From a virus: a stretch of DNA of 36,392 nucleotides. Made by a program: the position numbers and the translations under genes. Positions within the stretch are counted from its first letter, which is position 1. Each line of letters begins with the position of its first letter. Under the pieces are notes generated by a model. The model saw only the letters and a list, made by a program, of their open reading frames with translations, had not been told where the DNA came from and made no database searches. The DNA lies in IMG/VR virus record IMGVR_UViG_3300002307_000022, positions 108,585 through 144,976 of that record; one strand, written 5' to 3'. Shown one piece after another: positions 3,608-30,682 of this stretch.

Positions 3608-3919
3608 ATGGCGATAGCAAACGTAGCAGTAGGAACCTCAAATACAACAATTTATACTAGTAGCGGAGATTCTATGATCGCTACTATGATATTTTGTAAC
3701 ACATCGGATGCAACAACGACTAATGTAACAGTTTATCTTTTACCTAGCGGCGGATCTGTTGGTACAGGAACTATGATCGTTAACGCATTGAATATTCCTG
3801 CAACTGAAACAGTTTTCTTTGATACTGAGAGATTGGTTTTAGGAACAGGAGATAGCATCGTAGCAAAAAGTACAGCAGCTAGTACTATAACCTGCACTAT
3901 AAGTACGGTGGCTCTATAA
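3608..3919 (+). CDS. Small beta-sandwich-type virion protein (103 aa), putative fibre cap or adaptor
   Basis: SD AAGGT. Pattern IYT...IFCNT...V.VYL...I.N.L.IPA..T......RLVL..GDSI.A; paralogous to 7646..7975 (both contain ERLVL). Confidence 0.75.
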   Translation: MAIANVAVGTSNTTIYTSSGDSMIATMIFCNTSDATTTNVTVYLLPSGGSVGTGTMIVNALNIPATETVFFDTERLVLGTGDSIVAKSTAASTITCTISTVAL

Positions 3920-4444: not shown

Positions 4445-4461
4445 CTCCTAATTTAAAATCT

Positions 4462-4469
4462 AATAAATA
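4462..4469 (+). promoter_or_regulatory. T4-late-like promoter box AATAAATA
   Basis: Intergenic, upstream of SD GGAG and the ATG at 4496. Confidence 0.65.
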
Positions 4470-4495
4470 TGTATGTCTAATTTTGGAGATACAGT

Positions 4496-6022
4496 ATGCC
4501 CAATCCTGGCGGCGGCGGAATTCACGGTCCTAGTGGCGGTAATGGTGAGATAGGTAGGATTTCCGGTCCACTATTAAAAGATAACCTTCTTAGGAATGGG
4601 GTAGATCTCGCTTTTGAAACTGACTTATTATATCTAGATGTTGCACATAATAGAATAGGTATACATACTGCTGGTCCTACGAGAGATCTTACTATCGTAG
4701 GCACTACAAATATAAATCAAGATTTAACAGTAAGTACCGCAGCTAAATTTGGAAATATTATTTTTGGAATCGATAATTATATCTCTACTACTACTGGCAA
4801 TCTAACGATATCTGCTAACAACATTTACGCTCCTATATTAACTACAGATAATTTAAGAATAGCTACTAATACGATACAGACTATAACAGCTGATTCTAAT
4901 GTAATAATAAACGCTGCGGGTAAACTTAATATACATTCTAATACAAAAATTGACGGTAATTTAGAAGTTACTGGAAATATTGATATAACACAAAATCTTC
5001 ATGTATTTGGTAATTTAAATCTAGGAACAAACACAGAAGCAACGGATCAAATTTCATTTAGTGGAGCAGTTGGCGCTGATATATTTCCTACAGTTAACAA
5101 TTATTATCAATTAGGATACCATAACGAAAAATGGAAAACTGTTTATTTTGGAACAAGTGCGATTGGACAGAATATAGGATTATATTCTGACGGATCTATA
5201 AATCCTAATATATCAAATAGTGATTTAGTATTAGCTACTGCTTCTACTTTTTTAGTTGAAGATTTATCTATCAGTGATAGTACTATTACTTCTCTCAACA
5301 ATATAATAACATTTTCTACTGCATCAGACAAAAATTTAATTATCAGTGGAACAAATGCACTAAAAATACCAGCAGGGTCGGTTAGTGACAGATCTAATCT
5401 AGAAACGGGAGACCTTAGATTCTCAACTACTGTAGGTAGATATATAGGGTACGGTGATTCAAATCTAACATTTGGTGGAATATTTTCTGATGATAGACGA
5501 ACTTACATTATACCAGAATCTGCACTTAACGAAAATGACAAAATTATAAATTTAACGATAGACACTGATATAGCTGCAACTATTAATTCTACCACAGCAA
5601 CTATAATAACTTCAGCACAAGTTAATAAAATTAATATAATAAATGATACTATATCTACTACAACTACTGATGCTAATCTTTATCTAACACCAGCAGGATC
5701 TGGTAGTGTTGTGATAGGAAATTTATCAATTAAAGACAATGTTATTTCTAATAGTTCTTCAGCTAATCTAACACTATTAGCAAGTGGTGCTATGGGATAT
5801 ATTAATTTTAATAATACAGTTGGATTAGGAATACCATCAGGAGATGTATCATCTAGACCACTTGCTCCGCAGACCGGATTAACAAGATATAACACAGCCT
5901 ACAATTATTTAGAAATATATAATGGATCTGCTTGGACACCTATTATAGGAGCATCTCCTCTAATAACTGCTTCGGATTTAAACGATTTGACTTTAGAGTA
6001 CAGCTTATTATTGGGTGCTTAA
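4496..6022 (+). CDS. Tail fibre-like structural protein (508 aa), paralog A
   Basis: N-terminal GRISGPLLK.NLLR.GVDLAFET.LLYLDV...R.GI; repeated I..N.I.T....NL.L.P.G.G units; two IP.G....R...G..R[FY] motifs; hydrophobic C-terminus EYSLLLGA. Confidence 0.75.
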   Translation: MPNPGGGGIHGPSGGNGEIGRISGPLLKDNLLRNGVDLAFETDLLYLDVAHNRIGIHTAGPTRDLTIVGTTNINQDLTVSTAAKFGNIIFGIDNYISTTTGNLTISANNIYAPILTTDNLRIATNTIQTITADSNVIINAAGKLNIHSNTKIDGNLEVTGNIDITQNLHVFGNLNLGTNTEATDQISFSGAVGADIFPTVNNYYQLGYHNEKWKTVYFGTSAIGQNIGLYSDGSINPNISNSDLVLATASTFLVEDLSISDSTITSLNNIITFSTASDKNLIISGTNALKIPAGSVSDRSNLETGDLRFSTTVGRYIGYGDSNLTFGGIFSDDRRTYIIPESALNENDKIINLTIDTDIAATINSTTATIITSAQVNKINIINDTISTTTTDANLYLTPAGSGSVVIGNLSIKDNVISNSSSANLTLLASGAMGYINFNNTVGLGIPSGDVSSRPLAPQTGLTRYNTAYNYLEIYNGSAWTPIIGASPLITASDLNDLTLEYSLLLGA

Positions 6023-6043
6023 TGAACATAATTTCCAAGGTAT

Positions 6044-6051
6044 GATAAATA
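6044..6051 (+). promoter_or_regulatory. T4-late-like promoter box GATAAATA
   Basis: Intergenic; followed by a ~95-nt leader before the ATG at 6149. Confidence 0.65.
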
Positions 6052-6058
6052 ATATTAT

Positions 6059-6145
6059 CGAGCATTAGATCAAAATGTCCGTGTCCAAACTGTGGTAAAC
6101 CCGCAATGCAAGGTGGTTAGCCGTGTAACTCGGTGGTTGGGAGAG
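6059..6145 (+). ncRNA. Candidate structured cis-regulatory 5' leader
   Basis: Hand-folded stems: 6062-6066/6074-6078, 6091-6095/6101-6105, 6121-6123/6131-6133, and a closing stem 6084-6088/6137-6141 that overlaps the SD-like GGGAGAG. About 53% GC over 6081-6148 in an AT-rich context. Confidence 0.4.
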
Positions 6146-6148
6146 TAG

Positions 6149-7639
6149 ATGTCCGTTGGTCGAATTTCGGGCCCGCTCTTAAAAGCAAACCTGCTTCGTG
6201 ACGGAGTAGATCTAGCTTTTGAGACGAGCTTATTATATCTAGATGTAGTTAACTCCCGAGTTGGTATTAAAACCAGTTCCCCAGCCTATGATCTAGACGT
6301 AAACGGATACGTTAGAACAACTAATTTAGAAGTAACTGGTCAGCTTAGTGTTAGTCCTTATCTTACTCTAAGCGGTAATACGATTTCAAGTTCAAGCGAT
6401 GGATTAAATCTAACACCGTCTACAGGTAATGTTGTCTATCAAGGCACTATTAATGTTGGAGATCTTACTGTAAGCGGAAATACTATTGCTAGTGTAAGTA
6501 GTAACGATATTAATATAACCCCAAATGGGTCCGGAACAACGCAGATAAACTCAAGCACAAAAGTTTGGGGCGATCTAGAAGTTACAGGTACTATTAATGC
6601 AGACGGTGATGTAACTATCAGTGGTAACATTATATTAGCCAATCAAAGTTCAGGATCGATAAATTTTGCAGCAGGTATATCTAGCGATATCGTTCCTACA
6701 ACTAATAATACTTACGATATAGGTGCAAACGGAATAGCTTGGAAAAATCTATATGCTTATAATATGTATGTAGGAAATATATCTGTAACAGGAAATACAA
6801 TTTCAACTGTTGATAGTGGTACTAACTTATCATTATCAGGTAATGGATTAGGATCAGTTGTACTTGATCAATTAAGTATAAAATCTTCTACTATATCTTC
6901 TAGCAGTAACAATGATATAGTGCTTAGTCCGGGCGGAACTGGAATCGTATCTATCGACTCTAATCAAAGCATACAGATACCAGTAGGAACTACACTCCAA
7001 CAACCTGCTTCCCCAGCGTCTGGTATGATAAGATATAATACTACTATTGGACATTATGAAGGATATACCGGTAGTCGTTGGCAAGTATTAGATGGCGTAT
7101 ATGATACAGATAGAAATACATATATCACTGCCGAATCAACTCCGGGCGCAAATGACAAGACTATACGATTTGTAGTTAATGGCACACAAAAAGCTGACCT
7201 AAATGCTACTAGATTTAATTTTGACAGATTACAAGCAGGTGATATTGATATCAATGTTGATACTATATCAACAGTTACATCTGGAGCAAACTTAACATTA
7301 AGTCCAAATGGTTCAGGAAAAGTAGTTGTTGGTAATTTTAATATCAGTGGAAGCACTATAAACAATACTGTTTCCGATAGTATAACTTATTTAAATAATA
7401 CAGGATCAGGCTATGTTAGGATAGGCGGAACCTACGGTTTCGTAATGCCAGTAGGAAACAACAGTAATCAGATAACTGACGTATCTAATCCTACTGGATT
7501 AACAAGATACAATACAGACAACGGTCGCGCAGAAGTGTGGGACGGCGTTGAGTGGCTATCAGTAGCAGGACCTGGCGCCGGTATTACTATAGCAGAAGCA
7601 GAAGTTTTAGCAATTTTGAATGTTTTCAGTTTTGGGTGA
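6149..7639 (+). CDS. Tail fibre-like structural protein (496 aa), paralog B
   Basis: Same N-terminal block and overall architecture as 4496..6022; hydrophobic C-terminus EVLAILNVFSFG. Confidence 0.75.
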   Translation: MSVGRISGPLLKANLLRDGVDLAFETSLLYLDVVNSRVGIKTSSPAYDLDVNGYVRTTNLEVTGQLSVSPYLTLSGNTISSSSDGLNLTPSTGNVVYQGTINVGDLTVSGNTIASVSSNDINITPNGSGTTQINSSTKVWGDLEVTGTINADGDVTISGNIILANQSSGSINFAAGISSDIVPTTNNTYDIGANGIAWKNLYAYNMYVGNISVTGNTISTVDSGTNLSLSGNGLGSVVLDQLSIKSSTISSSSNNDIVLSPGGTGIVSIDSNQSIQIPVGTTLQQPASPASGMIRYNTTIGHYEGYTGSRWQVLDGVYDTDRNTYITAESTPGANDKTIRFVVNGTQKADLNATRFNFDRLQAGDIDINVDTISTVTSGANLTLSPNGSGKVVVGNFNISGSTINNTVSDSITYLNNTGSGYVRIGGTYGFVMPVGNNSNQITDVSNPTGLTRYNTDNGRAEVWDGVEWLSVAGPGAGITIAEAEVLAILNVFSFG

Positions 7640-7645
7640 TGAATA

Positions 7646-7975
7646 ATGGCAATTTCGTTTAAGAATAAAGTAGTAACAGGATTAGGTACTTCAGACACGC
7701 TATTAATTTCCAGCGATGCTAGTACAACGATTACAATTATGGGACTTAGTATCACAAATACTACAGACAATATCATACAGGTTAATGTTTGGTTAATTGA
7801 TGCAAGTAGCAATACAGGATATTATCTAAAGAACTGTATAGTAACTCCAAATAGTAGTGTTAGGGTAGTAAACGGAGGTGAGAGATTGGTTTTAACACCT
7901 AGCAATAGTTTACACGCTTCATCTAATGTAGCAGCTAGTGCAGACATTATAGTAAGTTACGCTACACAGGTATAA
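7646..7975 (+). CDS. Small beta-sandwich-type virion protein (109 aa), putative fibre cap or adaptor
   Basis: MA.SFKN...GLSITNT...V.VWL...YYLKN..V.PNSS....NGGERLVL; paralog of 3608..3919. Confidence 0.75.
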   Translation: MAISFKNKVVTGLGTSDTLLISSDASTTITIMGLSITNTTDNIIQVNVWLIDASSNTGYYLKNCIVTPNSSVRVVNGGERLVLTPSNSLHASSNVAASADIIVSYATQV

Positions 7976-8376: not shown

Positions 8377-11300
8377 ATGGCTGAATTTAAATTAGGTAGA
8401 TTAAGGTTCGTATGGAAGGGACCTTGGACAACTAGTACTGCATATGTTAAAGACGATGTAGTCAGAGTCGGTGGTAAAGTTTATGTTTGTTTGCTTGGCA
8501 ACACAAGTGCCAGTACTGCATACGGATTTAACTCAGATTTAACTAGCAGCTATTGGCAGCTAATGAGCGACGGTATTAACTATATAAGTGCAGGTTGGAC
8601 TACGGGTAATACTTACAACGTTGGTGATATTGTTACTGTTAGCTCTACAACATATATTTGTACAACTGGAAACATTGCTGGAGCTACATTTGCTGGAGAT
8701 TCTAGCAACTGGGCTACACTGGCTACTGGGTTTTCAAACAGAGGTACTTGGGCAAAGAATACAGCATATAACCTAAACGATGTTGTTAAGATCAGCGGAC
8801 AAGAATACATTTGCTCTACAGCACACACTTCTACAAATGTAGACAACGCTGGATTTTATACAGACTTAGGAACAAGCAAGTGGACACTATTTGTGGGCGG
8901 ATTTGCTTGGAAATCAAGCTGGACTGCTACTACTTTTTATAACTTAAATGACATTGTAAAAGTCGGCGGCAAAGAATATGTTTGTATTTCTAGCCATACT
9001 TCGACTACTAGTTCAGACAACAGCGGATTCTTTACAGATCTAGGAACCAGCAAATGGTCATTATATGTAGACGGAACATCCTGGAGAGGCAGCTGGTCAG
9101 CTGTATATTATAACGTAGGTGATCTAGTAAGTTATGGCGGCACTGTTTATATCTGTACCACAGCACATACTGGAGTAACTTCTCTAGAAACAAATATTAG
9201 CAACTGGACACTCTTTACTAGCGGCTTTGGTTGGAAGGGAGTTTATACTAACGGACCAACTGTATATAAATTAAATGATGTCGTAAGATATGGGCCTGAT
9301 CTTTATATCTGCACAGCTACATCAGGATATACAACAAGCACAGCTACTCTCGATCTAACTAAATGGACACTATTTGTAGCAGGGTTAGAATTCCAAAGTA
9401 CATATAGTGGAAGCACTAGCTATGCATTAGGAGATGTAGTAACTTACGGTGGTTATGTATACGCTTCTAAGAGCACAAACAATTTAGGAAATACCCCCTC
9501 AACTGCTTCGTCATATTGGGATATTGTTACTACTGGCTATTCACAGCAGGGTGCATATAGCGGATCAACTGATTATAAAGTAGGTAATGTTATAACTTAT
9601 GGTGCATACGTTTACGTTTGTACACTTGATACTACAGCGGGAATACTTCCAACTAATGTAACATATTGGTCATTACTAACTACTGGTATTAATTGGTTGG
9701 GTGCTTGGAGCGGAGCAACTGCTTACAAATTAGGTGATGCAGTATCTAGAGGATCTAACAGTTATATTGCTGTAGCAGCTAATACTAACATTGATCCTGG
9801 AACAGACGGCGGATCTAACTGGAATAGCCTAACACAAGGCGCAGCTTCAAACGTATTAACTACTTCAGGTGATACACTTTATTATGGTGGCGCAGGTAAT
9901 ACAAGATTACCAGTTGGTACACCTGGACAAGTTATGAAAGTAAGCGGCAGTACATTGCCATCGTGGGGATATTTTGGACAAGTAACAAATGTTTATTATG
10001 TTGGTCCAAGCGGAACTAATGCTACTACAAATGGTCAAGGAACTACTATGGATAAGCCATTCTTAACGGTCGCTTATGCATTAGCTAATGCTCCGTTTAC
10101 TGGAAACGCAGTTGTCTATATACAGACTGGGACTTATCAAGAGACTTGCCCAATGAGCATTCCTGCAAACACCTATCTAGTAGGCGATAGCGTAGGAAGT
10201 GTAGTTATATCTCCAACTTCTGGAACAAATACACAAAATATGTTCTTACTACGAGACAACACTGGTATTACAAACGTAACATTAACTGGCTTAGTTGGTA
10301 CACTTGGATCAGTAAACGCAAACGGAACTAAACGTCCAGGCGGTGGCGCATATATAAGCATCGATACTGGTGGTAGTGGTATTACAAGTACTAACCCAAT
10401 TATTGAAAATGTAACTATAATTGGAACAAGTGGTACCTCAAGTTGCACAGGTATTAAGGTAGATGCCGCAGCAAATGCAGGTAGCGATACTGTAAGAATA
10501 AATGATGTTACTATGATATTATCCGATGGTATTGGTATATGGGCTACTGGTAATGCAAAAGTATTAGCATCATCAGTATTTGTATACTATGCTTATGCAT
10601 CAATGCTATCTGAACTCGGAGCTACTATTTCAGCAACGGGTTGCAACAGTGCATACGGAACATATGGTGTTATATCAGAATCTACACTAGCAGGAGAATC
10701 TGCACTTACAGGTACTGTTACTACACAGACACAGCAGGCAACAGTAGCCGGTGCCTTGCTTGGTAACGGACAGGTATTGTGGTTAGAATACGCCAATGCT
10801 GGACAGACTTATTCAAGTGCTACATATAGTTTTGCTAGCGGCACAGGATACGGTGCAACTGTTAGTGCTGCAAATTTTGTAACAAACGCAGTTCCGGAAG
10901 TTCGTGTTATAACTGGTGGTTCAGGATATGTAACAACAACAAACGTTGCTCAATTAGGAACATCAACTACTATCACATTAAATGCAGCTGACACAGCAGC
11001 AACTGGTGCATATGTAGGAATGCGCATAGTGCTTTCAATAGGCACAGGAGCCGGTCAATATGGTTACATAACAGCTTACAACGGAACTACTAAAGTTGCA
11101 TCTGTAAGCGCAGAATCTACATCATCAGCGGGTTGGGATGTCGCAGTAGCAGGAACCCCTGTAGTAGCAGCATTAGATTCAACTACACGTTATACTATTG
11201 AACCACGTGTAACATTTACAGGTACAGGTACAGGACTATTGGTAAGGGCAGTTGTTACATCTGGTGCGATTACTTCGATGAGAGTTATCAATCCAGGTAC

Positions 11301-12396
11301 AGGTTATAGTGCAGCACCTAGCATTACTATAACAGATCCTAATGCAGGCTCTGCAGCTACATTTACTGTGAGGCAGCAAGCTTCAGGTGTACTAGCACAG
11401 CCAACTTGGACTAGCAGAGGTACAGGATATACTGATATACAAGCAACTATTAGTGGTAACGGGTATGGTGATTATCAAGCTGTTGGATCTAACATTTACA
11501 TTGCTGGATTAGCTTCATTACCAACAGCAGGCGGAAATGTAACAATTTCAAGCAACGTATATACATTAATACAAGTTATAAGTTCAACAGGTAGTGGCCC
11601 ATACGTAGCGTATGTCCAATTAGGAACAACATTTACTACTAGCAACGCACCAGCGCATTCAACAGCAGCAAGCGTTACTTACCGCTATAGCCAAGCTAGA
11701 TTGCAAGGACACACATTCCTACAAGTTGGCGCAGGCAATGTTGCTACTGCTGGATATCCAACAGTAACAGCTACTAACGCAATCACTGCAAATCAAATTC
11801 AGCAGGTTGTTGGCGGGCGTGTGTTCTATAGCAGCTTAGATCAATCAGGTACAGCTACATTTGGTAATTTAATTAGTTCAAACGAATCTGCAGGAACAGC
11901 AACTATTAGTGCTAGCTTATTAACAGTAAGCGGATTACAGCAACTACAGTTTGCTAGCGGTGGTGCAACTATTACACAGTTTAGTACTGATGGTACGTTA
12001 GCAGCCAATAGCAATGCATTAGTTCCAACACAAGCAGCTGTAAGATCATTTGTGATCGCACAGTTAAACCAGGGTGTTGGCACATTAACTGCAAGTAATT
12101 TATCAACTGGTAGAATATCTATCAGTGGACAAACAGTAACTACTACAACCGGAAACGACCTACTGCTAACAGCAGCAGGCGGACAGTTTATACAAGTAAA
12201 TTCACAGACAAACCTTAATGCGGCGATAGTGTTAACTTCTTCAGGAACAATGACACTAAACAGTGGCTCAACATTAACAATTAATGGTAATACAGTAATT
12301 AACACTACTCCAGCAGTAGCTACTGATATTACTAACAAAAGATATGTTGACCGCCCACTTTCGCTAAATACAAGGTGGACAAACTATTGGGTATAA
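8377..12396 (+). CDS. Large fibre or spike protein (1339 aa) with nine N-terminal CBM5/12-like repeats and a probable pectin-lyase-like beta-helix
   Basis: Nine W.G.W.....Y...D.V..GG..Y.C units. Then YYV...G.......G.T...PF.T...A....., V.I..GTY.E..P..IP....LVGD, typical of beta-helix starts. GSGY/GTGY repeats follow, and TNKRYVD lies near the C-terminus. Confidence 0.75.
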   Translation: MAEFKLGRLRFVWKGPWTTSTAYVKDDVVRVGGKVYVCLLGNTSASTAYGFNSDLTSSYWQLMSDGINYISAGWTTGNTYNVGDIVTVSSTTYICTTGNIAGATFAGDSSNWATLATGFSNRGTWAKNTAYNLNDVVKISGQEYICSTAHTSTNVDNAGFYTDLGTSKWTLFVGGFAWKSSWTATTFYNLNDIVKVGGKEYVCISSHTSTTSSDNSGFFTDLGTSKWSLYVDGTSWRGSWSAVYYNVGDLVSYGGTVYICTTAHTGVTSLETNISNWTLFTSGFGWKGVYTNGPTVYKLNDVVRYGPDLYICTATSGYTTSTATLDLTKWTLFVAGLEFQSTYSGSTSYALGDVVTYGGYVYASKSTNNLGNTPSTASSYWDIVTTGYSQQGAYSGSTDYKVGNVITYGAYVYVCTLDTTAGILPTNVTYWSLLTTGINWLGAWSGATAYKLGDAVSRGSNSYIAVAANTNIDPGTDGGSNWNSLTQGAASNVLTTSGDTLYYGGAGNTRLPVGTPGQVMKVSGSTLPSWGYFGQVTNVYYVGPSGTNATTNGQGTTMDKPFLTVAYALANAPFTGNAVVYIQTGTYQETCPMSIPANTYLVGDSVGSVVISPTSGTNTQNMFLLRDNTGITNVTLTGLVGTLGSVNANGTKRPGGGAYISIDTGGSGITSTNPIIENVTIIGTSGTSSCTGIKVDAAANAGSDTVRINDVTMILSDGIGIWATGNAKVLASSVFVYYAYASMLSELGATISATGCNSAYGTYGVISESTLAGESALTGTVTTQTQQATVAGALLGNGQVLWLEYANAGQTYSSATYSFASGTGYGATVSAANFVTNAVPEVRVITGGSGYVTTTNVAQLGTSTTITLNAADTAATGAYVGMRIVLSIGTGAGQYGYITAYNGTTKVASVSAESTSSAGWDVAVAGTPVVAALDSTTRYTIEPRVTFTGTGTGLLVRAVVTSGAITSMRVINPGTGYSAAPSITITDPNAGSAATFTVRQQASGVLAQPTWTSRGTGYTDIQATISGNGYGDYQAVGSNIYIAGLASLPTAGGNVTISSNVYTLIQVISSTGSGPYVAYVQLGTTFTTSNAPAHSTAASVTYRYSQARLQGHTFLQVGAGNVATAGYPTVTATNAITANQIQQVVGGRVFYSSLDQSGTATFGNLISSNESAGTATISASLLTVSGLQQLQFASGGATITQFSTDGTLAANSNALVPTQAAVRSFVIAQLNQGVGTLTASNLSTGRISISGQTVTTTTGNDLLLTAAGGQFIQVNSQTNLNAAIVLTSSGTMTLNSGSTLTINGNTVINTTPAVATDITNKRYVDRPLSLNTRWTNYWV
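8410..9835 (+). repeat. Nine tandem ~50-58-aa CBM5/12 (ChtBD3)-like protein repeats
   Basis: Counted by eye in the translation; repeats 3 and 4 share DN.GF.TDLGTSKW.L.V.G. Confidence 0.75.
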
Positions 12397-12424
12397 TTCA
12401 AACACATAATCTAGGAGAATTTTG

Positions 12425-15400
12425 ATGACAACAGCCGCAAAATATGGCGCACAGGACTTAAACGGTAATCCAGTAAATTACCAGCAGCTAGTAAACCCAG
12501 CAAATACGGGTCCTAGCAACGTCATAGTAAACACTACCTTCGTTAATAGGACAGGTACTGCTAACAAAGCAAGATTAGCACTATCTTCAACCGCACTTGT
12601 TCCACAGACAGTGTCAAGCACACAAGGATTATACCCTATCACTGCTAACCAGACAAATAATGCTGCTAGTGTTGAAACACAGCAGATATTAACGATTGGT
12701 AGCACTAGTAGCGTAACAAACGCATTTACCACAGCGCCAATTACAGTAACAGCAACAACAGTAGGTACTAACCAGATAGTTTGCTCAAGCACAGTTACAC
12801 TCTCAGTAGGTCAACCAGTTGTATTTACATCACCAATTGGCGGGTTGCAGGCTAACATCAATTATTATGTACTAAACATAGTGAGCAACACAAACTTTAC
12901 AGTTTCAAACGTATGGAACGGTGCGATAATTTCCCTAAACGGCCAGACAACTAACGTGCTAATGTACCAGTCAACTGCTAACTTAGCAGTTGGTATGCCA
13001 ATACAGTTCCACGGTACACCATTTGGTAACGTAGTATATAATTACAATTATTATATCAACACTATCACATCGAACAATAGCTTTACTGTTTCAATAGTAG
13101 CGGGTAGCGGCACAGCTGTTACTCTAACAACTAATGCACTAGGAACTTTTGCACCATTTACTGCTGTTCCACTAACTGGTACTAGCTTTAATCCGACTAT
13201 AAACAATCCGGCAGCTCTTAACGTATCAAACGTAGTTTCAGCTACTTATAACGGTATACAGGGCCTAAGCATTGGATATGCTAATAGTTCAGGCAACATC
13301 CTTTCAACAGCTGCAATAAACATTAATGCTATCGTTGCACAAAACGTAGCTTCAACACCATATAACCCAGTGTTCATTGTATGTTCCTCAACACTTACAC
13401 TTACAACTGGTATGCCAATCGTATTCAGTGCTACTAGCGGTAGTATCACAGGCGGCGTTGTTTATTATGTTTCACAGATATTCAGTAGCATAGCATTTAA
13501 CATATCTGCTACCCCTGGCGGCCCAGTACTACCATTAAGCTCAACTACCCCAACTGGATTAACTGCACAGCAAGCAACTACTTTCTTACAAGTTGGTCAG
13601 CCTATTGTCTTTAACGGTAGTGGTACATACGGAGCAGGTGTTGCTAATCAAGCAGGTGTTGGTGGACAGGTATTTGGAAATCTAAATGTTAATACTCCTT
13701 ATTATGTATTAACTATTCCAAGCGCAACTACATTTACAGTAGCTACTACTCCAGGTGGGTCAGCAGTAACTTTATTCACTGATGGTATGAATGGTACTAT
13801 CATAACTGCTGGTAACTTTAAGATTGGTCAGCAATATGTTATCGTTTCATCTGGTAGTACTACATTCCCAGGTGCAGGTAATAATAACCAAGGAACTGTG
13901 TTCACTGCAACTGGTCCAGGTTCCGGTACAGGTACTGCGATGGTCTGTAGCAGTTATGTTTCAGGTAGCGGTCTTGTTGCCGGTGTAACTTATGCTATTG
14001 GTTGGTTAAACACAATTACTGCTGCTAACATCGATACTGCTGCCGCAACTGCAAAATCTGGTAGCAATGTCGTAGTCCAAGGTGTAAGCTATTCAGCTAT
14101 TGGTACATTCTCTTATGCTAACCCAACTGGTTCAGCAGCAGCAAATACCCAAGCAGTTAGCTATTTTGTATCAGCTACTACAACATCAAACGCAGGTGTA
14201 TTCATTCCGATCAATCCAATGATTACTACAAATGCTGCACACGTTTCAAATCCATTAACTATAGCAAGCTCAAGTGCAGTAACTAACGCATTTACTGTAG
14301 CAGCTATCGCAGTATCAGCAACAACAGCATCAACTGGATATATAACTTGTGCTAGCACAGCTACACTTGCTATCGGACAACCGGTTGTATTTGATACTTC
14401 ATTTTCTACTATCGTAGCAGGAACTGTTTATTATGTGCTAACTGTACAGTCTAGCACAACTTTCCAGATATCAGCTACACAGATTACTTCAACTATACCT
14501 AGCAACTCGCTATACCCATTAACTACTACAACTGGTCAGACAGTTAATATGTATCAAGCAACTACTAACCTACAGGTAAACGTACCAATGATATTTACTG
14601 GTACTGCTATCGGTGGTGTAACTGCTGGACAGGTATATTATGTACAAAACCTATTAACAACTACAGTAGGTGGAGCAGTTATACCAAATAGTTTCCAAAT
14701 ATCAACAATTTATGGTGGTCCTGCACTAACATTAACAACTGCTAGTGGATCAATGGTTGCAACTATTACACCGATTGTTCCAACTATCAACGTAAACGCA
14801 TCAACAGCAAGTGGATCTTTAACAGTCGGCGGTACATTAGGTACATATACTAACTATCTAACCACACAGTATGCCACTTGTTCGGCAACTGCTGGTGCTG
14901 CACCATACGAAATCACAGTTAATACAACTAGCTGGATGTCAGTGGGTCAACCAGTAGTATTCAGTTCAGTTAACACTGGTACTAACGTGTTTGCAAGTGC
15001 TTCTATCGGTAGTACAAATATAACTGCTGGTACTACTTACTATGTTGCAACTATTGATAGCTTAACAGCGTTCCAAGTGTCTGCTACATACGGCGGTGCT
15101 CCAGTTGCGTTAGGCTCAACTAGCCAGACTATGTATGTTTACCAGTCAACTGCTAACTTAAACGTAGGTCAACCTGTAGTATTTACAGGTGGTACTATCA
15201 CAGACTCTGCGCTAGCACTTAACACTACTTACTATGTTAACTCAGTATTGGGCCCTGCATACTTTACAGTTGCAAGCACTATATACGGTTCAAACCTAGC
15301 ACTAACAGGCGGTGGTACTAACATCAACAGCGTACAGATTGGTCCTCGTCCACTAATGACGATTTCAGCAACTGTAACATCAAGTGGTGTTACTATGATG

Positions 15401-18400
15401 ACATTCCCAGTAAGTGCTACACAGCAGTATACTAACTTAATTACTATTAACACTACATATCCACTATCAGTAGGTATGCCAGTTGTATTCAGTGCTGCTA
15501 CAGGACTTATGGCTGCTAACCAGCTGTTTTATGTAGCAAGTATAGTAAACGGTACGCAGTTTACTGTATCATCAACTAAGGGTGGTCCAGTGTATGTACA
15601 GAATACTACAACCGGTATTAGTGCTAACTTGTATCAGTCTACTACTAACTTGTATCTAAACCAACCACTAGTATTTTTCCCAACAGCAGCAAGTGCTACA
15701 ATTTCTAATGCTTCAAGTATTCCGACTGGTCTGACTAACATGGTATATGGTTATACAGTATACATTAACACTTTTAACAGTTTAATTTCGTTTACTATAT
15801 CACTAACACCAAACAGCTCATTACCAGGTGCTACAGCTACTACTTCAATTAGCTTGTCAAGTGCTGGTACTACTAACGCATTTGCGTTCTTACCAATGAC
15901 TAATAACGTAGCTTCAAACTTTGCTTATCAGTCTGCTCCTGTAGCAGTTACAGCAACTAGTGCCACAGCACCATACTTAATCACTTGTGCTAGCACAGCT
16001 GGTTTTGCTCTTGGACAACCTGTACAGTTTGATATAGCGATCGGTGGATTAGCTGTTAACACAACTTATTATGTATTAACTACTCCAAGTTCAACTACAT
16101 TTAACGTATCTACTACCCCGTTTGGTGGTGTGGTTGTGTTAACATCAGCAACTGGTAGTACCGGTAACGTATATCAGTCAACTGCTGGGTTAACAGTAGG
16201 TTCAGCTATACAGTTTACTACTGCAAGTTCATATCTTGGTTTGCCAACTGACACATATAAGACAGTAATTGGCGCAGCTTATAATTCATTATCAGCAGGG
16301 TTAACATTCTATATACAGAGTATACCAAGCTTTAACACAGTTATATTAACTCTAATAAACGCAAGCCCAGCATCTTTTGGTGCTGCAACAGGATACAGTT
16401 CTGGTGCTTCCATCGGTGGCTACGGTGGAATTGGTATGTTACCACTAGGCGTTGGTGCATTTACTGGTGCTACTTTATATAATGGTGTTAGCGGATTAAC
16501 AGTGACTGGAGCAGCAACTCCAGGTGCACAAAGTGGAGCTATGTATCTCAATACAATTAGCCCAACACCTCCTCTAGTAATTGGATCAACTACTGCAACA
16601 AGCAACTATTTCACTACACAGACTGTCAACGTTACTGCTGTAACTTCCGTAGGTAACTTAATTACCTGCGCTACTACACAGTATTTTTATCCAGGTATGT
16701 CTGTAGTGTTTAGCTCTGGTCTAGGAACTGGTATAGTATCGGGTACTGTTTACTACATATTAACCATTCCAAGCGCAACTACATTTACAGTATCTTCTAC
16801 ATTTAATGGTACAGTACAGACACAATCAACTACTACAGGTAATATAACTGTACAGCAGACTGCATTGTTCTTACAAGTAAATCAACCAGTTGTTTTCTAC
16901 GGAAAAATAGCAGCTAACCCAATCGTAGGTGTTAGCTTAGTGAGTGTTAGTTCGGGCGGTGTGTTAACTTTAGGTACCGCAGTTACATTAGCTGCTGGTT
17001 CTACTATTACTACAAGCTCATCATTAACTGTTGGTGCAACTGGTTTAATAGCTGGTCAGACATACTATGTCACAACAAGCGTTACAGCAAGCACTACAGT
17101 AACATTAAGTCTCACACTAGGCGGTAGTGCTATTTCTATAACTGGCGGTTCACCGACTGGTACATTAACAGTATCAATTATTGGATTAGTAAATGCACTA
17201 CCGGGTGTAACTTATTATGTAAATGAAGTTATTAATACAACATCATTTACGGTTAGCCAGTATATAAACGGATCTATATTTGCTCTACTTTCTGCAACTG
17301 CCACGCAGTTTAATGCGGTAACCGGTCCTTACAGGCAGTATAATATAAGTGCAACTCTTGCTGCGACTACTCCAAGCTTTACATTAGCAGCATTTGGATT
17401 GATTGGTACACAGTCAACTAATGGTACAAACTTAGCAATCGTGAATAATACTTTTGCTATGTATCCAGGAATGCCAATATCAATAGGCGGTACTTCGGGT
17501 GTATTAGTAGCAAATACATTATATTATGTGGTTAGTATATATGATCAGCATCGTGTTGTAGTTTCGATAGCACCTCCTAGTCAGTATGCTTCACCAAATA
17601 GTGTAGGTTATATTCCAACTACAAACAGCATCATTTACCAAACACCAAACGGTACTGCTTTACCGGTAACTACACAGATAGGAACTCAACCACTATATCA
17701 ATCAGCAGCTAAATTACAGCTTAACCAACCAGTTATGTTCTATGGTAACTTGGGTGGTATGACTGTAGCTTCTAACGCATTAGTAATTGGTAGGACTTAC
17801 ACTGTGGTATCAGTAGGTGACGCTACCTTTACTTCATATGGCGCGGCAGCAAATACTGTTGGTACAGTGTTTATAGCTACAACAACAGGCGGTGGTACTA
17901 CTGGTGTAGCATATAGCAGCTTCTTAAGCACTAGTGCGGTGTTGCTTCCAAATACTGTATATTATGTAAGTTCAGTTTCGGGCGCAGGTATTGGATCAAA
18001 CCAAGTAGCAGTTTCAGCAACACCAACGTATGCAGGAACTAACATTACTTCATATATCACAAGCGTTAGCATCGCTTCACCAGGTGTGTTTAGCACTTCA
18101 AACTTACCGTTTACACTAGTAGCTGGTCAGGCTATTACGATAACTGGTACAGCGGCTGCAACATTAGCTACAGGTAGTACTACTCCAAATCGTACATACT
18201 ATGTAACTAATATCAGTGGTTCTACTTTCTCACTAGAAACTTTTCCAGGAAACGGCGGTATACAGAATACAACTTCAACTAGCGTAAGTGGTTGGACGTT
18301 TGTACTAAATGGTATCAATCCAAACATTGCTGTTAACTTATCATCAGCAGGTCCAGCAGCACTCGGATTAGCAGCACAGGTAGCATCTACAGCACAAGCA

Positions 18401-20935
18401 ATGACAATGGTTCCGTTAATGAGCAATGTTACTGCACCGAACGTATTCCAAGCACAACCACTACCAATCGTAGCAACAAGCGGTAGCAGTGCTTATAGCT
18501 TTACAACTGGTGTAATGACTGTAGCTTATGCTACTTCAATTGGTTCTAACTTAATAACTTGCTTATCAACAGCAGGATTAACTGTTGGTATGCCAGTATC
18601 GTTTAGTGCTACCCTCGGTAACATTACAAGTGCAACTACTTACTACGTATTAACTGTTAATAGTGCAACTACATTTACTGTCGCAACTACATGGGGCGGC
18701 CAGGTATTAGTATTAACTAATGCTTATAACTACTCATATGTAAACGCATCAACTGCTAACTTAACAGCAGGACAGCCGATGGTGTTTACAGGATCAGTAT
18801 TTGGTGGTATCATAGCATATAACACCTATTACGTAGCAACTGTACTAAGCACAACTACATTTACTCTTGCTAACAGCTTGGCTGCTGCGATTGGTATCGG
18901 TGGTTCTCCAACTCTAGCACAGAATACTGCTGCAACAGGTTATATGTTAGCTTATGCAGCAACTGGTAGTACTACAACAACTGGTGCCGTTATTGGTGGT
19001 CAGAACTTAGGTGCAATGGGTACAGGTAACTATGGACTAGTTATAGGTCAACAGTATATGATCACTTCAGTAGGTTCTACAACTTGGACTACTTATGGTG
19101 CAGCTACAAGCACTGTAGGTACTATCTTTACTGCAACTGCACAGGGTGCAGCATACGGTGGTAGTGGTACATACAATATCGGTAGCACATCAGGCGCAGC
19201 AACTGGTACTGCTATCGAACTAGTAGGACTAATGGGTAATATGAATGCAAGCATTGGAGCAAATGCTCCAGCTATGTTTGCAGGTCCAACTATTACTGTA
19301 ACCGGAATCAACGGTACACAGCTTTATACACCAGGTAACACAAACTATCTAAGTGTTGGACAGGCTGTAGTGTTCACTGGTTATACTTTTATAAGTGGCA
19401 TCACAGCTGGATTAACTTACTACATACAGAGCGTTGTAAGCAGCAATGTGTTTACACTAAGCGCAACTAGTAACGGCGCTGCGTTAACATTTACTACTGG
19501 CAGCAACATACTAAGTATGCAGATCTTAAACAGCATCGGTACTAGCTTAATACCATATCAGACTTACTATACACAGAGTGTTCCAAACCCAATAGCTTGG
19601 AGCATAAGCAGCACTAACGTACAGGCTCCGGCTATTACCGTAAGCGCCACAGCATCTGGTACAGCTATAACTACTGGTGCATACACAGTAACAGCAGTTT
19701 CAGCAACTGGTAACTTGATTACTACTACAAGCACAGCTGGTCTAATAGTTGGCCAACCTATAGTATTCCCAACTAGTGTACTAGGTAACATTGTAGCAAC
19801 AACTATCTATTATGTGCAGACTGTTTACAGTGCTACACAGTTTAGCATAGCTACTTCTGCAACTGCCCAGGCATTTAATCCAGGAACTGCAACAGGTAGC
19901 GTAACTATGCAGATAGCGACTGCTAACTTAGCAGTAGGACAGCAGGTTAACTTCTCAGGCAACGTAGGTGCAAGCGGTATAGTAGTAGGAACTAACTATT
20001 ACATACAGAGCCTAAATGCTAACGGTTATCAGTTTACTGTAGCAAGCTCAGTAGGTGGTAGTGCGCTATCATGGACTGCTGCTACACTAACTAACGGACT
20101 AACTGCTAGCTTTGTAATTAATGCAACAGCACTTACAACGTCACAGACTGCAACTGTAAGTTATCAGAGCAACATATTAACACTTGCAACTGGTAGCAGC
20201 ACACAGTATTTGCTACCTAACCAACCAGTAGTGTTTACAAATACTAGTGGTGCTAACTGGAGCGGATTAAACACTCTACTCACAGTCGCAAGTGCTACTG
20301 TTCCGGCAGTAAGCTCAGCATATGTAGTTACTACAGTTACAACTAGTACCAACGTTATAACAATTAACTATGTAACTAGTAATACTGGAACTAAAACTGC
20401 TACTACGCTAATAACTGGTGCTTTCCCTGCGCTAACACTTAATCAACCGGTTGTGTTTATAGGAACAAACGTTGATAACTTAGTTGTTAACCAGACTTAC
20501 TATATACAGAGCATAACAGCTGCTACTGGTATTACAGTATCAACAACACCGGGTGGTGCAGCAGTATCTATAGGTAGTACTACTAGCCCAACTGCTGGTA
20601 CAATGCTAATGATTCCAGCATACTATGTGAAAGCAGTTACCGGTAGTAACACACTACAAGTATCAGCTACTCCAGGCGGCGCAGCAGTGTATATTCCAAC
20701 GTTCTATGCACAGGGTAATAACGTAGTACAGATGACTCCGATGCCACTAAACACAGACTTCATCTACGGTGACGTAGCTGTAGCTGCTCAGAGCCAAGTA
20801 ACTGCTAACGGTATATTAGTACCGCCAAACACTTACTTGTATGCTTCCGCAGGATTGACTGTATTTGGTTCCGGTACAGGTGGTTCAGCAACTGGTATGA
20901 ACGCAATAGCAATTGGTGTTCAGGATCTAGTATAA
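12425..20935 (+). CDS. Giant repeat protein (~2836 aa), putative adhesin or fibre appendage: a small cap domain split by a ~2,700-aa repeat insert
   Basis: SD AGGAGA (12413-12418) favours ATG 12425 over TTG 12422. About 26 copies of ST..L.VGQPVVF...G....[YF]Y[VI]..I.S.T.FTVS.T.GG; the two termini resemble the 103/109-aa paralogs. Confidence 0.8.
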   Translation: MTTAAKYGAQDLNGNPVNYQQLVNPANTGPSNVIVNTTFVNRTGTANKARLALSSTALVPQTVSSTQGLYPITANQTNNAASVETQQILTIGSTSSVTNAFTTAPITVTATTVGTNQIVCSSTVTLSVGQPVVFTSPIGGLQANINYYVLNIVSNTNFTVSNVWNGAIISLNGQTTNVLMYQSTANLAVGMPIQFHGTPFGNVVYNYNYYINTITSNNSFTVSIVAGSGTAVTLTTNALGTFAPFTAVPLTGTSFNPTINNPAALNVSNVVSATYNGIQGLSIGYANSSGNILSTAAININAIVAQNVASTPYNPVFIVCSSTLTLTTGMPIVFSATSGSITGGVVYYVSQIFSSIAFNISATPGGPVLPLSSTTPTGLTAQQATTFLQVGQPIVFNGSGTYGAGVANQAGVGGQVFGNLNVNTPYYVLTIPSATTFTVATTPGGSAVTLFTDGMNGTIITAGNFKIGQQYVIVSSGSTTFPGAGNNNQGTVFTATGPGSGTGTAMVCSSYVSGSGLVAGVTYAIGWLNTITAANIDTAAATAKSGSNVVVQGVSYSAIGTFSYANPTGSAAANTQAVSYFVSATTTSNAGVFIPINPMITTNAAHVSNPLTIASSSAVTNAFTVAAIAVSATTASTGYITCASTATLAIGQPVVFDTSFSTIVAGTVYYVLTVQSSTTFQISATQITSTIPSNSLYPLTTTTGQTVNMYQATTNLQVNVPMIFTGTAIGGVTAGQVYYVQNLLTTTVGGAVIPNSFQISTIYGGPALTLTTASGSMVATITPIVPTINVNASTASGSLTVGGTLGTYTNYLTTQYATCSATAGAAPYEITVNTTSWMSVGQPVVFSSVNTGTNVFASASIGSTNITAGTTYYVATIDSLTAFQVSATYGGAPVALGSTSQTMYVYQSTANLNVGQPVVFTGGTITDSALALNTTYYVNSVLGPAYFTVASTIYGSNLALTGGGTNINSVQIGPRPLMTISATVTSSGVTMMTFPVSATQQYTNLITINTTYPLSVGMPVVFSAATGLMAANQLFYVASIVNGTQFTVSSTKGGPVYVQNTTTGISANLYQSTTNLYLNQPLVFFPTAASATISNASSIPTGLTNMVYGYTVYINTFNSLISFTISLTPNSSLPGATATTSISLSSAGTTNAFAFLPMTNNVASNFAYQSAPVAVTATSATAPYLITCASTAGFALGQPVQFDIAIGGLAVNTTYYVLTTPSSTTFNVSTTPFGGVVVLTSATGSTGNVYQSTAGLTVGSAIQFTTASSYLGLPTDTYKTVIGAAYNSLSAGLTFYIQSIPSFNTVILTLINASPASFGAATGYSSGASIGGYGGIGMLPLGVGAFTGATLYNGVSGLTVTGAATPGAQSGAMYLNTISPTPPLVIGSTTATSNYFTTQTVNVTAVTSVGNLITCATTQYFYPGMSVVFSSGLGTGIVSGTVYYILTIPSATTFTVSSTFNGTVQTQSTTTGNITVQQTALFLQVNQPVVFYGKIAANPIVGVSLVSVSSGGVLTLGTAVTLAAGSTITTSSSLTVGATGLIAGQTYYVTTSVTASTTVTLSLTLGGSAISITGGSPTGTLTVSIIGLVNALPGVTYYVNEVINTTSFTVSQYINGSIFALLSATATQFNAVTGPYRQYNISATLAATTPSFTLAAFGLIGTQSTNGTNLAIVNNTFAMYPGMPISIGGTSGVLVANTLYYVVSIYDQHRVVVSIAPPSQYASPNSVGYIPTTNSIIYQTPNGTALPVTTQIGTQPLYQSAAKLQLNQPVMFYGNLGGMTVASNALVIGRTYTVVSVGDATFTSYGAAANTVGTVFIATTTGGGTTGVAYSSFLSTSAVLLPNTVYYVSSVSGAGIGSNQVAVSATPTYAGTNITSYITSVSIASPGVFSTSNLPFTLVAGQAITITGTAAATLATGSTTPNRTYYVTNISGSTFSLETFPGNGGIQNTTSTSVSGWTFVLNGINPNIAVNLSSAGPAALGLAAQVASTAQAMTMVPLMSNVTAPNVFQAQPLPIVATSGSSAYSFTTGVMTVAYATSIGSNLITCLSTAGLTVGMPVSFSATLGNITSATTYYVLTVNSATTFTVATTWGGQVLVLTNAYNYSYVNASTANLTAGQPMVFTGSVFGGIIAYNTYYVATVLSTTTFTLANSLAAAIGIGGSPTLAQNTAATGYMLAYAATGSTTTTGAVIGGQNLGAMGTGNYGLVIGQQYMITSVGSTTWTTYGAATSTVGTIFTATAQGAAYGGSGTYNIGSTSGAATGTAIELVGLMGNMNASIGANAPAMFAGPTITVTGINGTQLYTPGNTNYLSVGQAVVFTGYTFISGITAGLTYYIQSVVSSNVFTLSATSNGAALTFTTGSNILSMQILNSIGTSLIPYQTYYTQSVPNPIAWSISSTNVQAPAITVSATASGTAITTGAYTVTAVSATGNLITTTSTAGLIVGQPIVFPTSVLGNIVATTIYYVQTVYSATQFSIATSATAQAFNPGTATGSVTMQIATANLAVGQQVNFSGNVGASGIVVGTNYYIQSLNANGYQFTVASSVGGSALSWTAATLTNGLTASFVINATALTTSQTATVSYQSNILTLATGSSTQYLLPNQPVVFTNTSGANWSGLNTLLTVASATVPAVSSAYVVTTVTTSTNVITINYVTSNTGTKTATTLITGAFPALTLNQPVVFIGTNVDNLVVNQTYYIQSITAATGITVSTTPGGAAVSIGSTTSPTAGTMLMIPAYYVKAVTGSNTLQVSATPGGAAVYIPTFYAQGNNVVQMTPMPLNTDFIYGDVAVAAQSQVTANGILVPPNTYLYASAGLTVFGSGTGGSATGMNAIAIGVQDLV

Positions 20936-21012: not shown

Positions 21013-21035
21013 TGTAATATTGGTGATTGAAAATT

Positions 21036-22019
21036 ATGACAGATAACTTAACAAGATATATAACTCCTGGGTCAAATAACACTGTAAAATTCAAACAGGG
21101 CGTTTTAGCTTCTTATGAAGGAACTACACTCACAGTACAAACTAATACTGTTGTTGATAGTTTCCTATTAGGAAATTATTCTTCAGTTGATTATACTATA
21201 ACGGTTAATTTTGATTCAAATAAAAAAGAAACGATGCAAGTGCAAGTAATAGCCCGTTCTCAACAGGCTAGTGTTTTAATAAACAGCAGAGTCAGCATCG
21301 ATCAAGAGTTAATTACCCTTTCTGGAACAGTTAATAATAATACATTTACGTTATTAGCTTCAGTAACTGATCCTAGTTATAAGGGTGCAAAGCTTACATT
21401 CTTTGCTAATTATCTAGCAATAACATCACCGTTAACTACAACAGCCACTAGGGGAAGTATAACTGATTATCCTTTACCTATAGCAAGCACAAGCAATGTG
21501 ATATTCCAGCCTGTTGTTTCTAATACAGGATTTAAAAGTCCAGGATTTTATGTAGATTCAGCAGGTGTCTTAACATTAACTAATACTGCTAATCTAACCG
21601 GTAATGTAAATATACATCCTGCTGTAACAACAGGTACTATTGATAATGTAAATATTGGCGCTACTAGTCCAGGAACCGGTAATTTTACTTCAGTAACTGT
21701 GACTCAAACTTTTGGTATTAGTCCTTCAAATACAGGTAGTATTGATAATATAGTTATAGGTAATACTGTTCCTAAATCAGGAAAATTTACAAGTATAACA
21801 GCAACAGCAGGCGCAAGCATAACCGGTGATACTACTATGACTGGAAATACAACAGTAACTGGAAATACGACAGTAACTGGAAATACGACAGTAACTGGAA
21901 ACTCAGTAGTGACTGGAAATACGACAGTAACTGGAAACTCAGTAGTGACTGGAAATTTAAGTGTAGGTGGTACAGATATTAAACTATTAGCCATTGCGTT
22001 TGCTACGGTGCTAGGTTAA
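21036..22019 (+). CDS. Short fibre-like protein (~327 aa) with hexapeptide repeats and a hydrophobic C-terminal tail
   Basis: ATG 21036 preferred (SD GGTGA at 21022-21026). Two G.IDN..IG.T.P..G.FTS units, TGNTTV repeats and a C-terminal KLLAIAFATVLG. Confidence 0.75.
   Translation: MTDNLTRYITPGSNNTVKFKQGVLASYEGTTLTVQTNTVVDSFLLGNYSSVDYTITVNFDSNKKETMQVQVIARSQQASVLINSRVSIDQELITLSGTVNNNTFTLLASVTDPSYKGAKLTFFANYLAITSPLTTTATRGSITDYPLPIASTSNVIFQPVVSNTGFKSPGFYVDSAGVLTLTNTANLTGNVNIHPAVTTGTIDNVNIGATSPGTGNFTSVTVTQTFGISPSNTGSIDNIVIGNTVPKSGKFTSITATAGASITGDTTMTGNTTVTGNTTVTGNTTVTGNSVVTGNTTVTGNSVVTGNLSVGGTDIKLLAIAFATVLG
21840..21956 (+). repeat. 18-bp coding tandem repeat (6.5 copies, TGNTTV/TGNSVV)
   Basis: Units ACTGGAAATAC[A/G]ACAGTA and ACTGGAAACTCAGTAGTG; 21876-21911 is identical to 21912-21947. 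Confidence 0.95.
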
Positions 22020-28489: not shown

Positions 28490-28851
28490 TCTTCTACTTT
28501 ATAGCTTGGAGTAATTAAAAAAGTGTCGGCAGTTAAATCAGCTGTCGACACTTCTGATATCATACTACCGTCTGTTATAGCTTCTAGTTGGTGGGGTCTA
28601 AGAGGTTGACAATGCCAAGTCATACCTTCACTAAGTACGCTTTCTTTATTTTCAGCAGTGTCAGTATCTATCCATCGTAGGATAAATTTGCCTGTATTAA
28701 CAAACCAGGTCTTATCTTTGATTTTATGGAAATGTAAGCTGGTCCTATTTCCAGCTTTAGGAAATACTAGCATTTTAGCACAATAATTTTCAGTATTGGC
28801 CCATACTATCTCATAACCCCAGTTTTTTTCAATTAAACCTTGCTTTGACAT
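28486..28851 (-). CDS. Cupin-fold protein (mannose-6-phosphate isomerase-like), 121 aa
   Basis: K.WG.E..W, SLHFH..KD.TW (cupin motif 1), P..PHQL (motif 2) and EVST. Confidence 0.8.
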   Translation of the reverse strand: MSKQGLIEKNWGYEIVWANTENYCAKMLVFPKAGNRTSLHFHKIKDKTWFVNTGKFILRWIDTDTAENKESVLSEGMTWHCQPLRPHQLEAITDGSMISEVSTADLTADTFLITPSYKVED

Positions 28852-28875
28852 AATATGATTATACTATAGGTTTTG

Positions 28876-29313
28876 TTATTTGTCAACCATCAGATCCAGC
28901 ATTTCAAAGATCGTATCTAATTTAGCACGTATGATTTTACTGCCTACTGTGTTTTTTATACCTTGATGTACTGGCCTCGGCCAATGATCCATTTCGCACC
29001 ATGCCCATCCCTTGTGCTCATCACTGAGTACAGGAACAAATTCTTCTTTAACGATGCACACATATGTTTGGAAATTAAAATGTTCATCATCGCTTACAAA
29101 TGTTTCTAATGGTAGTGACTTTAATGTATCTGGAAAAGCACCTATCTCTTCGATAACTTCTCTCTGTAGAGCCTGCCAAACCGATTCGTTGGGATTGACT
29201 TTACCGCCTACTAGACCCCATACTCCCTCTTTTTTACCTGAGGCTTTTTGTAAAAGTAAGAATCTTTTTGTAGATCTGCTGAGGAACAGTGCTCCACTAC
29301 TCTTTATCTTCAA
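28876..29313 (-). CDS. NUDIX hydrolase (~145 aa)
   Basis: Nudix box GGKVNPNESVWQALQREVIEEIG and downstream LSDEH..WAW. The start is better placed at TTG 29313, which overlaps the upstream TGA and has SD GGAGGA 7 nt before it. Confidence 0.9.
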   Translation of the reverse strand: MKIKSSGALFLSRSTKRFLLLQKASGKKEGVWGLVGGKVNPNESVWQALQREVIEEIGAFPDTLKSLPLETFVSDDEHFNFQTYVCIVKEEFVPVLSDEHKGWAWCEMDHWPRPVHQGIKNTVGSKIIRAKLDTIFEMLDLMVDK

Positions 29314-30679: not shown

Positions 30680-30682
30680 TGC

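Follow-up and report, generated by a model that had tools for sequence, protein, structure and literature searches.

Does a phage protein of 2,836 amino acids (aa) begin and end with the two halves of one small domain, so that nearly everything between them is carried in a single loop? The question is raised by a giant gene at positions 12425 to 20935 of a 36,392-nucleotide stretch of DNA (positions 108,585 to 144,976 of the IMG/VR virus record IMGVR_UViG_3300002307_000022; the whole stretch is referred to as the window). An initial annotation of the window had proposed that the repeat array of this protein sits in one surface loop of a small beta-sandwich. On the basis of profile comparisons, we are highly confident that the two termini are homologues of the two halves of a ~105-aa phage domain, for which the name F106 was coined here. 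It is probable, judging from this homology and from jelly-roll topology, that the termini form a split jelly-roll whose halves are joined within one chain and that the array is thereby a closed loop.

The gene is a single stop-free open reading frame (ORF) running from 12422 or 12425 to 20935. The longest version opens with a TTG at 12422 whereas all relatives begin one codon later (MTTA...), which makes the ATG at 12425 the probable start and gives the product of 2,836 aa. Only 36 of these residues (1.3%) are charged, namely 14 D, 10 K, 7 R and 5 E, and 28 of them are found within the 2,717 residues of the insert, while T, A, S, G and V together account for 59% of the protein. Searches of Pfam, PHROG and PDB sequences with the giant protein and with a stretch of its internal repeat gave no useful match, and tblastn of each terminus against 50,697 GenBank phage records gave no credible match. 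A search of the ESM Atlas returned unnamed viral clusters only.

The internal repeat is a 51-aa module. An iterated hidden Markov model (HMM) seeded on one internal unit found at least 29 copies of the module within residues 119-2755 and none in residues 1-118 or 2756-2836, in agreement with the initial annotation, where the termini were described as free of the internal repeat. After refinement, the N-half was placed at 12425-12592, the insert at 12593-20743 (2,717 aa) and the C-half at 20744-20932, giving the following layout.

12425..12592, + strand: N-half of the putative split jelly-roll, residues 1-56, expected strands B-E, motifs NR and R-L-A-L
12593..12778, + strand: outgoing non-repeat linker, residues 57-118, conserved in the lineage, with module matches beginning only at residue 119
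12779..20689, + strand: almost uncharged array of the 51-aa beta module, residues 119-2755, mixed with segments of other kinds
20690..20743, + strand: return linker, residues 2756-2773, between the last module match and the start of the C-half alignment
20744..20935, + strand: C-half of the putative split jelly-roll and the stop codon, residues 2774-2836, expected strands F-I

The N-half is conserved in all eleven of the eleven relatives compared. The outgoing linker contains invariant columns such as Q60 and V62 (numbering of an 865-aa relative), which belong to an 'LVPQ.V' motif following the N-half. An intein or another self-splicing insert was considered and ruled out by inspection of the junctions, as the insert opens with A-L-V-P-Q and closes with ...T-P-M followed by P-L-N, there is no H-N at its end, and a Pfam intein match is absent.

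An uninterrupted counterpart of the joined termini was found at related loci. A word-indexed protein search with the C-end gave only seven clusters; the uninterrupted homologue was revealed by a search guided by synteny, in which related loci were fetched around homologues of the gene downstream of the giant one. The two neighbouring genes that define the locus are as follows.

8377..12396, + strand: tail-fibre protein of 1,339 aa with CBM_5_12 repeats (phrog_9851, E 2.8e-162; CBM_5_12)
21027..22019, + strand: 330-aa gene, neighbour on the C-terminal side and downstream syntenic marker for finding related loci

In two related jumbo-phage contigs (L004 and L007, positions 2807-3127) the homologue of the upstream phrog_9851 fibre is directly followed by an uninterrupted F106 gene encoding 106 aa, the first half of which resembles the N-end of the giant protein and the second half its C-end. 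It lies where the initial annotation had suggested that a ~100-aa uninterrupted protein might be found, namely after the CBM-repeat fibre. BLASTP alignments of joined termini with this 106-aa protein crossed the junction with a gap of two residues, with an E-value of 1e-12 for the termini of the 865-aa relative and 1e-5 for those of the window protein. The 106-aa protein itself gave nothing useful in Pfam, PHROG and PDB sequence searches.

Further evidence was obtained with an F106 profile built from 104 single-domain members and run against unaltered natural sequences. The natural split relatives each give two F106 matches with complementary profile coordinates, as in the following two proteins.

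2,499-aa relative: profile 21-52 at residues 28-59 and profile 51-104 at residues 2445-2498 (C-end 39.6 bits, E 2.5e-14)
1,281-aa relative: profile 5-51 at residues 6-54 and profile 53-104 at residues 1229-1280 (C-end 37.8 bits)

The same paired, complementary matches were observed in relatives of 2,487, 2,489, 865 and 870 aa. The N-halves of the relatives match at 7-13 bits and the C-halves, which lie at the extreme C-ends, at 38-43 bits (E ~1e-14), with 42 bits for the 865-aa protein. Both halves are jointly kept in four size classes, and the core motifs of the family are intact in most of these proteins. We also considered whether the 865-aa relative might end in a second, complete copy of the domain (profile 13-50 at residues 773-811), and rejected this as the family motifs are missing from that stretch and as the longer relatives show only positions 51-104 at that place.

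For the window protein, the natural sequence gives an N match of 4.8 bits (profile 28-55 at residues 33-61) and a C match of about -1 bit (profile 51-88 at residues 2771-2808), and the N-half taken in isolation scores 10.6 bits (E 2.7e-5). Joined, the termini match F106 across the junction with 22.9 bits in HMMER (E 4e-9), and their alignment from six relatives matches it in hhalign with a probability of 98.5% over 98 columns (E 2.4e-15). All controls stayed below the true score: the maximum was 20.9 bits when the N end was joined to internal stretches (884 chimeras), 20.0 bits when internal stretches were joined to the C end (886 chimeras) and 11.2 bits for 500 shuffles. Between the C-ends of the window protein and of the 865-aa relative the identity is 45%. 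Both the N-half signature of F106 (profile ~17-52, with N-R and R-x-A-L motifs) and its C-half signature (profile ~51-104) were therefore found in the giant protein, where the halves stand 2,717 residues apart instead of being contiguous, making it a split member. Profile similarity of the joined termini and the existence of short uninterrupted homologues, on which the initial proposal depended, are thus both borne out.

The size of the insert differs widely from phage to phage. A search with the C-end returned full-length relatives of 2,734-2,846 aa together with the 865-aa protein, which shares both ends with them and is far shorter in between. The gene after the phrog_9851 fibre homologue encodes 106, 865, 870, 2,487-2,499 or 2,734-2,846 aa depending on the phage. 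The synteny with the upstream fibre holds in seven loci (L004, L024, L027, L029, L030, L031 and L025), and homologues of the 330-aa gene and of a 2,146-aa gene occur further downstream at related loci; the 1,281-aa form lies on a short contig with a context too small for synteny to be checked. Insert lengths at the break are about 0, 755, 1,170, 2,380 and 2,720 residues, so that a loop with variable inserts at one point, which the initial annotation had suggested looking for, is found among the relatives. The number of module copies is 10 in the 865-aa, 15 in the 1,281-aa and 29 in the 2,836-aa protein.

In a tree of the reconstructed domains (a quick maximum-likelihood tree from few columns, the careful search not having finished), the split forms make up one branch (SH-aLRT, the Shimodaira-Hasegawa-like approximate likelihood ratio test, 100) among the uninterrupted members, and the family of a 103-aa protein of the window forms a separate branch. 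The single split branch is consistent with one insertion and a later expansion of the repeats. Two upstream fibre homologues (L004:210-2795, 41.9 bits; L024:76-2718, 20.9 bits) each contain a single 51-aa module, and the window's own 1,339-aa fibre contains none; such homologues are a possible source of the insert. Another member of the split lineage was observed as a partial ORF on a 2.4-kb metagenome contig (L039:3-995). Upstream of its last modules, this ORF contains a different W/G/T-rich sequence without a Pfam match, and the nested cargo may accordingly not always be the 51-aa module.

The F106 family itself is large, and its domain is common in phages. A search seeded with the 106-aa gene (L004:2807-3124) gave 1,289 database representatives at E<=1e-3; no Pfam entry was found for the family, and a weak match links it to phrog_11338, annotated as 'tail fiber protein'. 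A separate F106 gene was not detected anywhere in the 145-kb record from which the window comes. The domain occurs as a stand-alone virion protein of ~105 aa, in tandem pairs of ~215 aa, or as the terminal module of cargo-bearing proteins, where its partners include He_PIG immunoglobulin-like, FG-GAP, fibrinogen-like, concanavalin-like lectin / Laminin_G_3 and glycine-rich Gly_rich_2 domains (tandem or fused examples are the database proteins P0081, P0088, P0091, P0118, P0185 and P0221). Such varied binding modules at one end of F106 fit a conserved anchor with exchangeable cargo. Gly_rich_2 genes were also observed to come after the 106-aa and 865-aa genes at related loci. Among 174 F106 domains, 67 have an insertion directly after profile position 52, by far the commonest site of insertion or deletion, and it is at this hotspot (profile position 51/52) that the giant protein is broken. 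Our literature searches found no description of the F106 family or of a comparable split anchor.

The window encodes two small proteins with which the initial annotation had aligned the joined termini by eye.

3608..3919, + strand: stand-alone protein of 103 aa with a predicted jelly-roll fold, a distant paralogue of the split domain (AlphaFold predicted local distance difference test, pLDDT, 94)
7646..7975, + strand: protein of 109 aa, a more distant paralogue, related to the 103-aa protein

The 103-aa protein has many homologues of ~100-115 aa, and an HMM of this family built without the 109-aa protein matches the latter over its full length (12.3 bits, E 7.6e-6). Compared directly with the joined termini, the 103-aa-family HMM gives a non-significant 1.6 bits, and hhalign of the 103/109-aa family gives 0.5%, with the best local match in a shifted register; the match made by eye is on these scores alone not above chance. 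The F106 profile recognises the 103-aa protein (18.6 bits, E 8.9e-8) and, weakly, the 109-aa protein (6.5 bits), and hhalign aligns the 103/109-aa family with F106 at 94.5% (E 7.6e-8) in the register that had been proposed. The likeness to the small proteins hence fails as a direct comparison and stands, in the same register, when made through F106 (98.5% and 94.5% for the two steps). The closest uninterrupted relatives of the split domain are the F106 proteins, and the 103- and 109-aa proteins are only distant ones, linked through F106 at the level of a superfamily.

The fold is indicated by the model of the 103-aa protein, a nine-strand beta sandwich with strands at 2-8, 13-17, 22-31, 38-45, 56-63, 68-71/76-78, 83-88 and 94-102. 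Its best structural match is the trimeric cement protein of phage KHP40 (PDB 7dou; Z 9.4, root-mean-square deviation 2.6 A over 98 residues), followed at a Z of about 8 by nucleoplasmin, Ena1B (Z 8.2), the HFTV1 turret and YomS, and the alignments with jelly-rolls are sequential and extend over the whole length. Foldseek of the model against the PDB gave no match below E 0.001. Among predicted viral structures many proteins of ~105 aa match with template modelling (TM) scores of 0.75-0.96, several of them annotated virion structural proteins of cyanophages and one from the Agrobacterium jumbo phage Atu_ph07. The split point maps to the loop at residues 46-55, between strands 38-45 and 56-63, and the homologous loop is also variable in length in the 103-aa family. 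This position, together with the profile similarity, supports the initial proposal that the whole array is placed in one loop of a small beta-sandwich.

The scaffold would then be a single ~105-aa jelly-roll in a virion appendage protein built by domain insertion, and the E-F loop, which links the fourth and fifth strands of the jelly-roll, would hold ~2,717 residues, mostly the tandem 51-aa beta module. A jelly-roll consists of eight strands (B to I) in the sheets B-I-D-G and C-H-E-F, such that strands B-E and F-I alternate in both sheets, and the E-F hairpin is a surface turn. With the strands alternating in this manner neither half should be able to fold alone, and the last-made C-half would therefore have to pair with the first-made N-half. 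The base of the array would thereby be closed, and the array would project from the docking point of the jelly-roll as a loop or hairpin anchored at both ends. The jelly-roll may serve to attach the protein to the virion, for which the preceding fibre is a possible site, with the nested array as the displayed cargo. We infer the joint folding of the halves of one chain from the homology and the topology of the jelly-roll; provided that the split-domain homology is correct, closure within one chain is the likely outcome.

The homology evidence demands a pairing of the halves and does not by itself demand that they belong to the same chain. The N-half of one chain could pair with the C-half of another to form antiparallel dimers, closed rings or head-to-tail chains, an arrangement which would suit an array behaving as a stiff rod, in which the termini of one chain would be far apart, and a fold resembling polymerising jelly-rolls such as the Ena1B pilus subunit (Z 8.2). 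The ancestral domain was, however, encoded as a monomer, both ends of the insert leave from one hairpin, most loop insertions close in cis, and our data give swapping no preference; we therefore regard pairing between chains as rather improbable. Somewhat less probable still is that the split is only historical and that no jelly-roll is rebuilt, the N end serving by itself as a virion-attachment peptide and the C end by itself as, for example, a nucleus of folding or oligomerisation in a linear fibre. Many phage fibres do combine an N-terminal anchor with an independent C-terminal element, and the window C-half is diverged, having lost the E-R-T-G motif and gained ~11 residues. In four size classes, however, both halves are retained, mostly with intact core motifs, and we know of no precedent for half a jelly-roll as a stable unit. 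A likeness arising by chance or composition, with the termini being unrelated short motifs in a T/S/V/A-rich protein, could draw on the non-significant direct comparison with the 103/109-aa family and on the internal segments that score up to 20.9 bits in chimeras. This explanation is strongly disfavoured by profile matches that complement each other without overlap in six or more natural sequences (C-half E ~1e-14), the hhalign probability of 98.5%, the coincidence of the break with the indel hotspot and the existence of a syntenic uninterrupted homologue.

Several observations nevertheless weigh against a split jelly-roll closed within one chain. The C-half of the window protein is barely recognised alone (-1 bits within the natural protein, 5.2 bits in isolation) and the joined termini outscore the best chimeras only narrowly (22.9 against 20.9 and 20.0 bits), so that the case for the window protein itself rests partly on its better-preserved relatives. 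The window sublineage is a long branch, and its C-half lacks the E-R-T-G motif of the family and has gained the ~11 residues just before the last strand. The jelly-roll assignment derives from the model of a distant paralogue, the 103-aa protein. Structure prediction speaks neither for nor against the contact between the halves, which is deduced here: the N (1-64) and C (2768-2836) segments predicted as a complex of two chains gave a score of 0.01, in which the fold of the partners is itself uncertain, and AlphaFold2 of the 865-aa relative with an 11-row alignment of the split lineage was of low confidence (mean pLDDT 37.7, termini ~27-30). A deeper alignment with 86 uninterrupted homologues was left unused because MAFFT set their N-halves on the last repeat and not on the true N-end. 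A spacer of 2,717 residues also lowers the effective concentration for closure in one chain.

A more far-reaching proposal is that the paired halves, whether in cis or between chains, act as a clasp that turns the uncharged array into a closed loop or a head-to-tail chain. We consider this unlikely. Were it true, it would be a fibre architecture undescribed for any phage and the largest known domain-in-loop insertion, with a length easily tuned by gain or loss of repeats, as in the range from about 0 to 2,720 residues among the relatives.

The setting of the gene is that of a virion gene block. The window is the terminal 36 kb of a 145-kb record which CheckV estimates to be ~40% complete, and a record of this length at such completeness points to a jumbo phage; the source of the giant gene is an uncultured jumbo myophage. 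Genes for a major head protein, several fibre-like proteins, a tail sheath and large virion structural proteins are found in the window. The sole nucleotide match among GenBank phages is a short piece of the capsid gene, to the Xanthomonas jumbo phage XacN1, and the relatives were found on metagenomic contigs of up to 364 kb. In the region 3920-7639, three proteins of 174, 508 and 496 aa have a common segment of ~60 aa, for which matches were found in the N-terminal regions of many functionally uncharacterised PHROG families, and the three have the appearance of paralogous fibre proteins. Between the tail-sheath-like gene and a virion structural gene sits a gene for a GIY-YIG homing endonuclease, and just downstream of the tail-sheath-like gene the - strand (28486-31237) encodes a NUDIX hydrolase and a cupin with the annotation 'cysteine dioxygenase'.

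This work defines a large unnamed family of phage anchor domains, apparently a general socket for varied binding modules. Nested domains are familiar, but the natural series with inserts of about 0, 755, 1,170, 2,380 and 2,720 residues in a single loop offers an exceptionally clean case for studying how much separation a discontinuous domain tolerates before it fails to fold, when its first half is made minutes before its second. The picture of the appendage would change as well, from a fibre anchored at its N-end with a free distal C-end to one with both ends back at one anchor, and this would affect how receptor-binding geometry is read in these widespread freshwater jumbo phages.

One of the systems compared is the F106 family, with whose two halves the giant protein shares homology at its termini and whose gene has the same position after the phrog_9851 fibre; the family members are contiguous, in stand-alone, tandem or terminal form, whereas the copy in the giant protein is interrupted at profile position 51/52. 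The KHP40 cement protein, a trimeric decoration jelly-roll of phage capsids, and the nucleoplasmin core, Ena1B and the HFTV1 turret are the best structural matches of the 103-aa model, with identities of only 9-14% and Z values of 8-9 near the level of a common fold, such that they are informative on the fold but not on function or location. T4 gp37 sets a precedent for a fibre running out and back. In the tip structure described by Bartual et al. in 2010, the chain reportedly runs to the tip and back, with both segments passing the same base. There is no sequence relation between the two proteins, and the hairpin of gp37 is confined to the distal tip of the long tail fibre, with termini that form no common domain. 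The tip is described as a six-stranded antiparallel needle domain (PMC7291167).

In function, the nearest analogue is the evolved Dit of siphophage baseplates, which carries carbohydrate-binding modules inserted in loops of its galectin-like domain (PMC7291167). Like it, the giant protein would be a protein of an adhesion device with cargo placed inside one loop of a small beta-sandwich structural domain, which thereby becomes discontinuous in sequence. The two are unrelated in sequence, as the Pfam and PHROG searches gave no Dit match for the giant protein, and the combination of an N-terminal ring with a galectin-like domain that marks an evolved Dit was not found in it; it would thus work like an evolved Dit without being a member of that group. 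They also differ in the host fold, galectin-like in one and a predicted jelly-roll in the other, and in the cargo, which is one or two compact modules in evolved Dit and an insert of ~2,717 residues comprising at least 29 modules in tandem, about 25 times the size of the host domain, in the giant protein. With an insert of this scale in a host of ~119 residues, the giant protein takes to an extreme the domain-in-loop design that is known from phage adhesion proteins.

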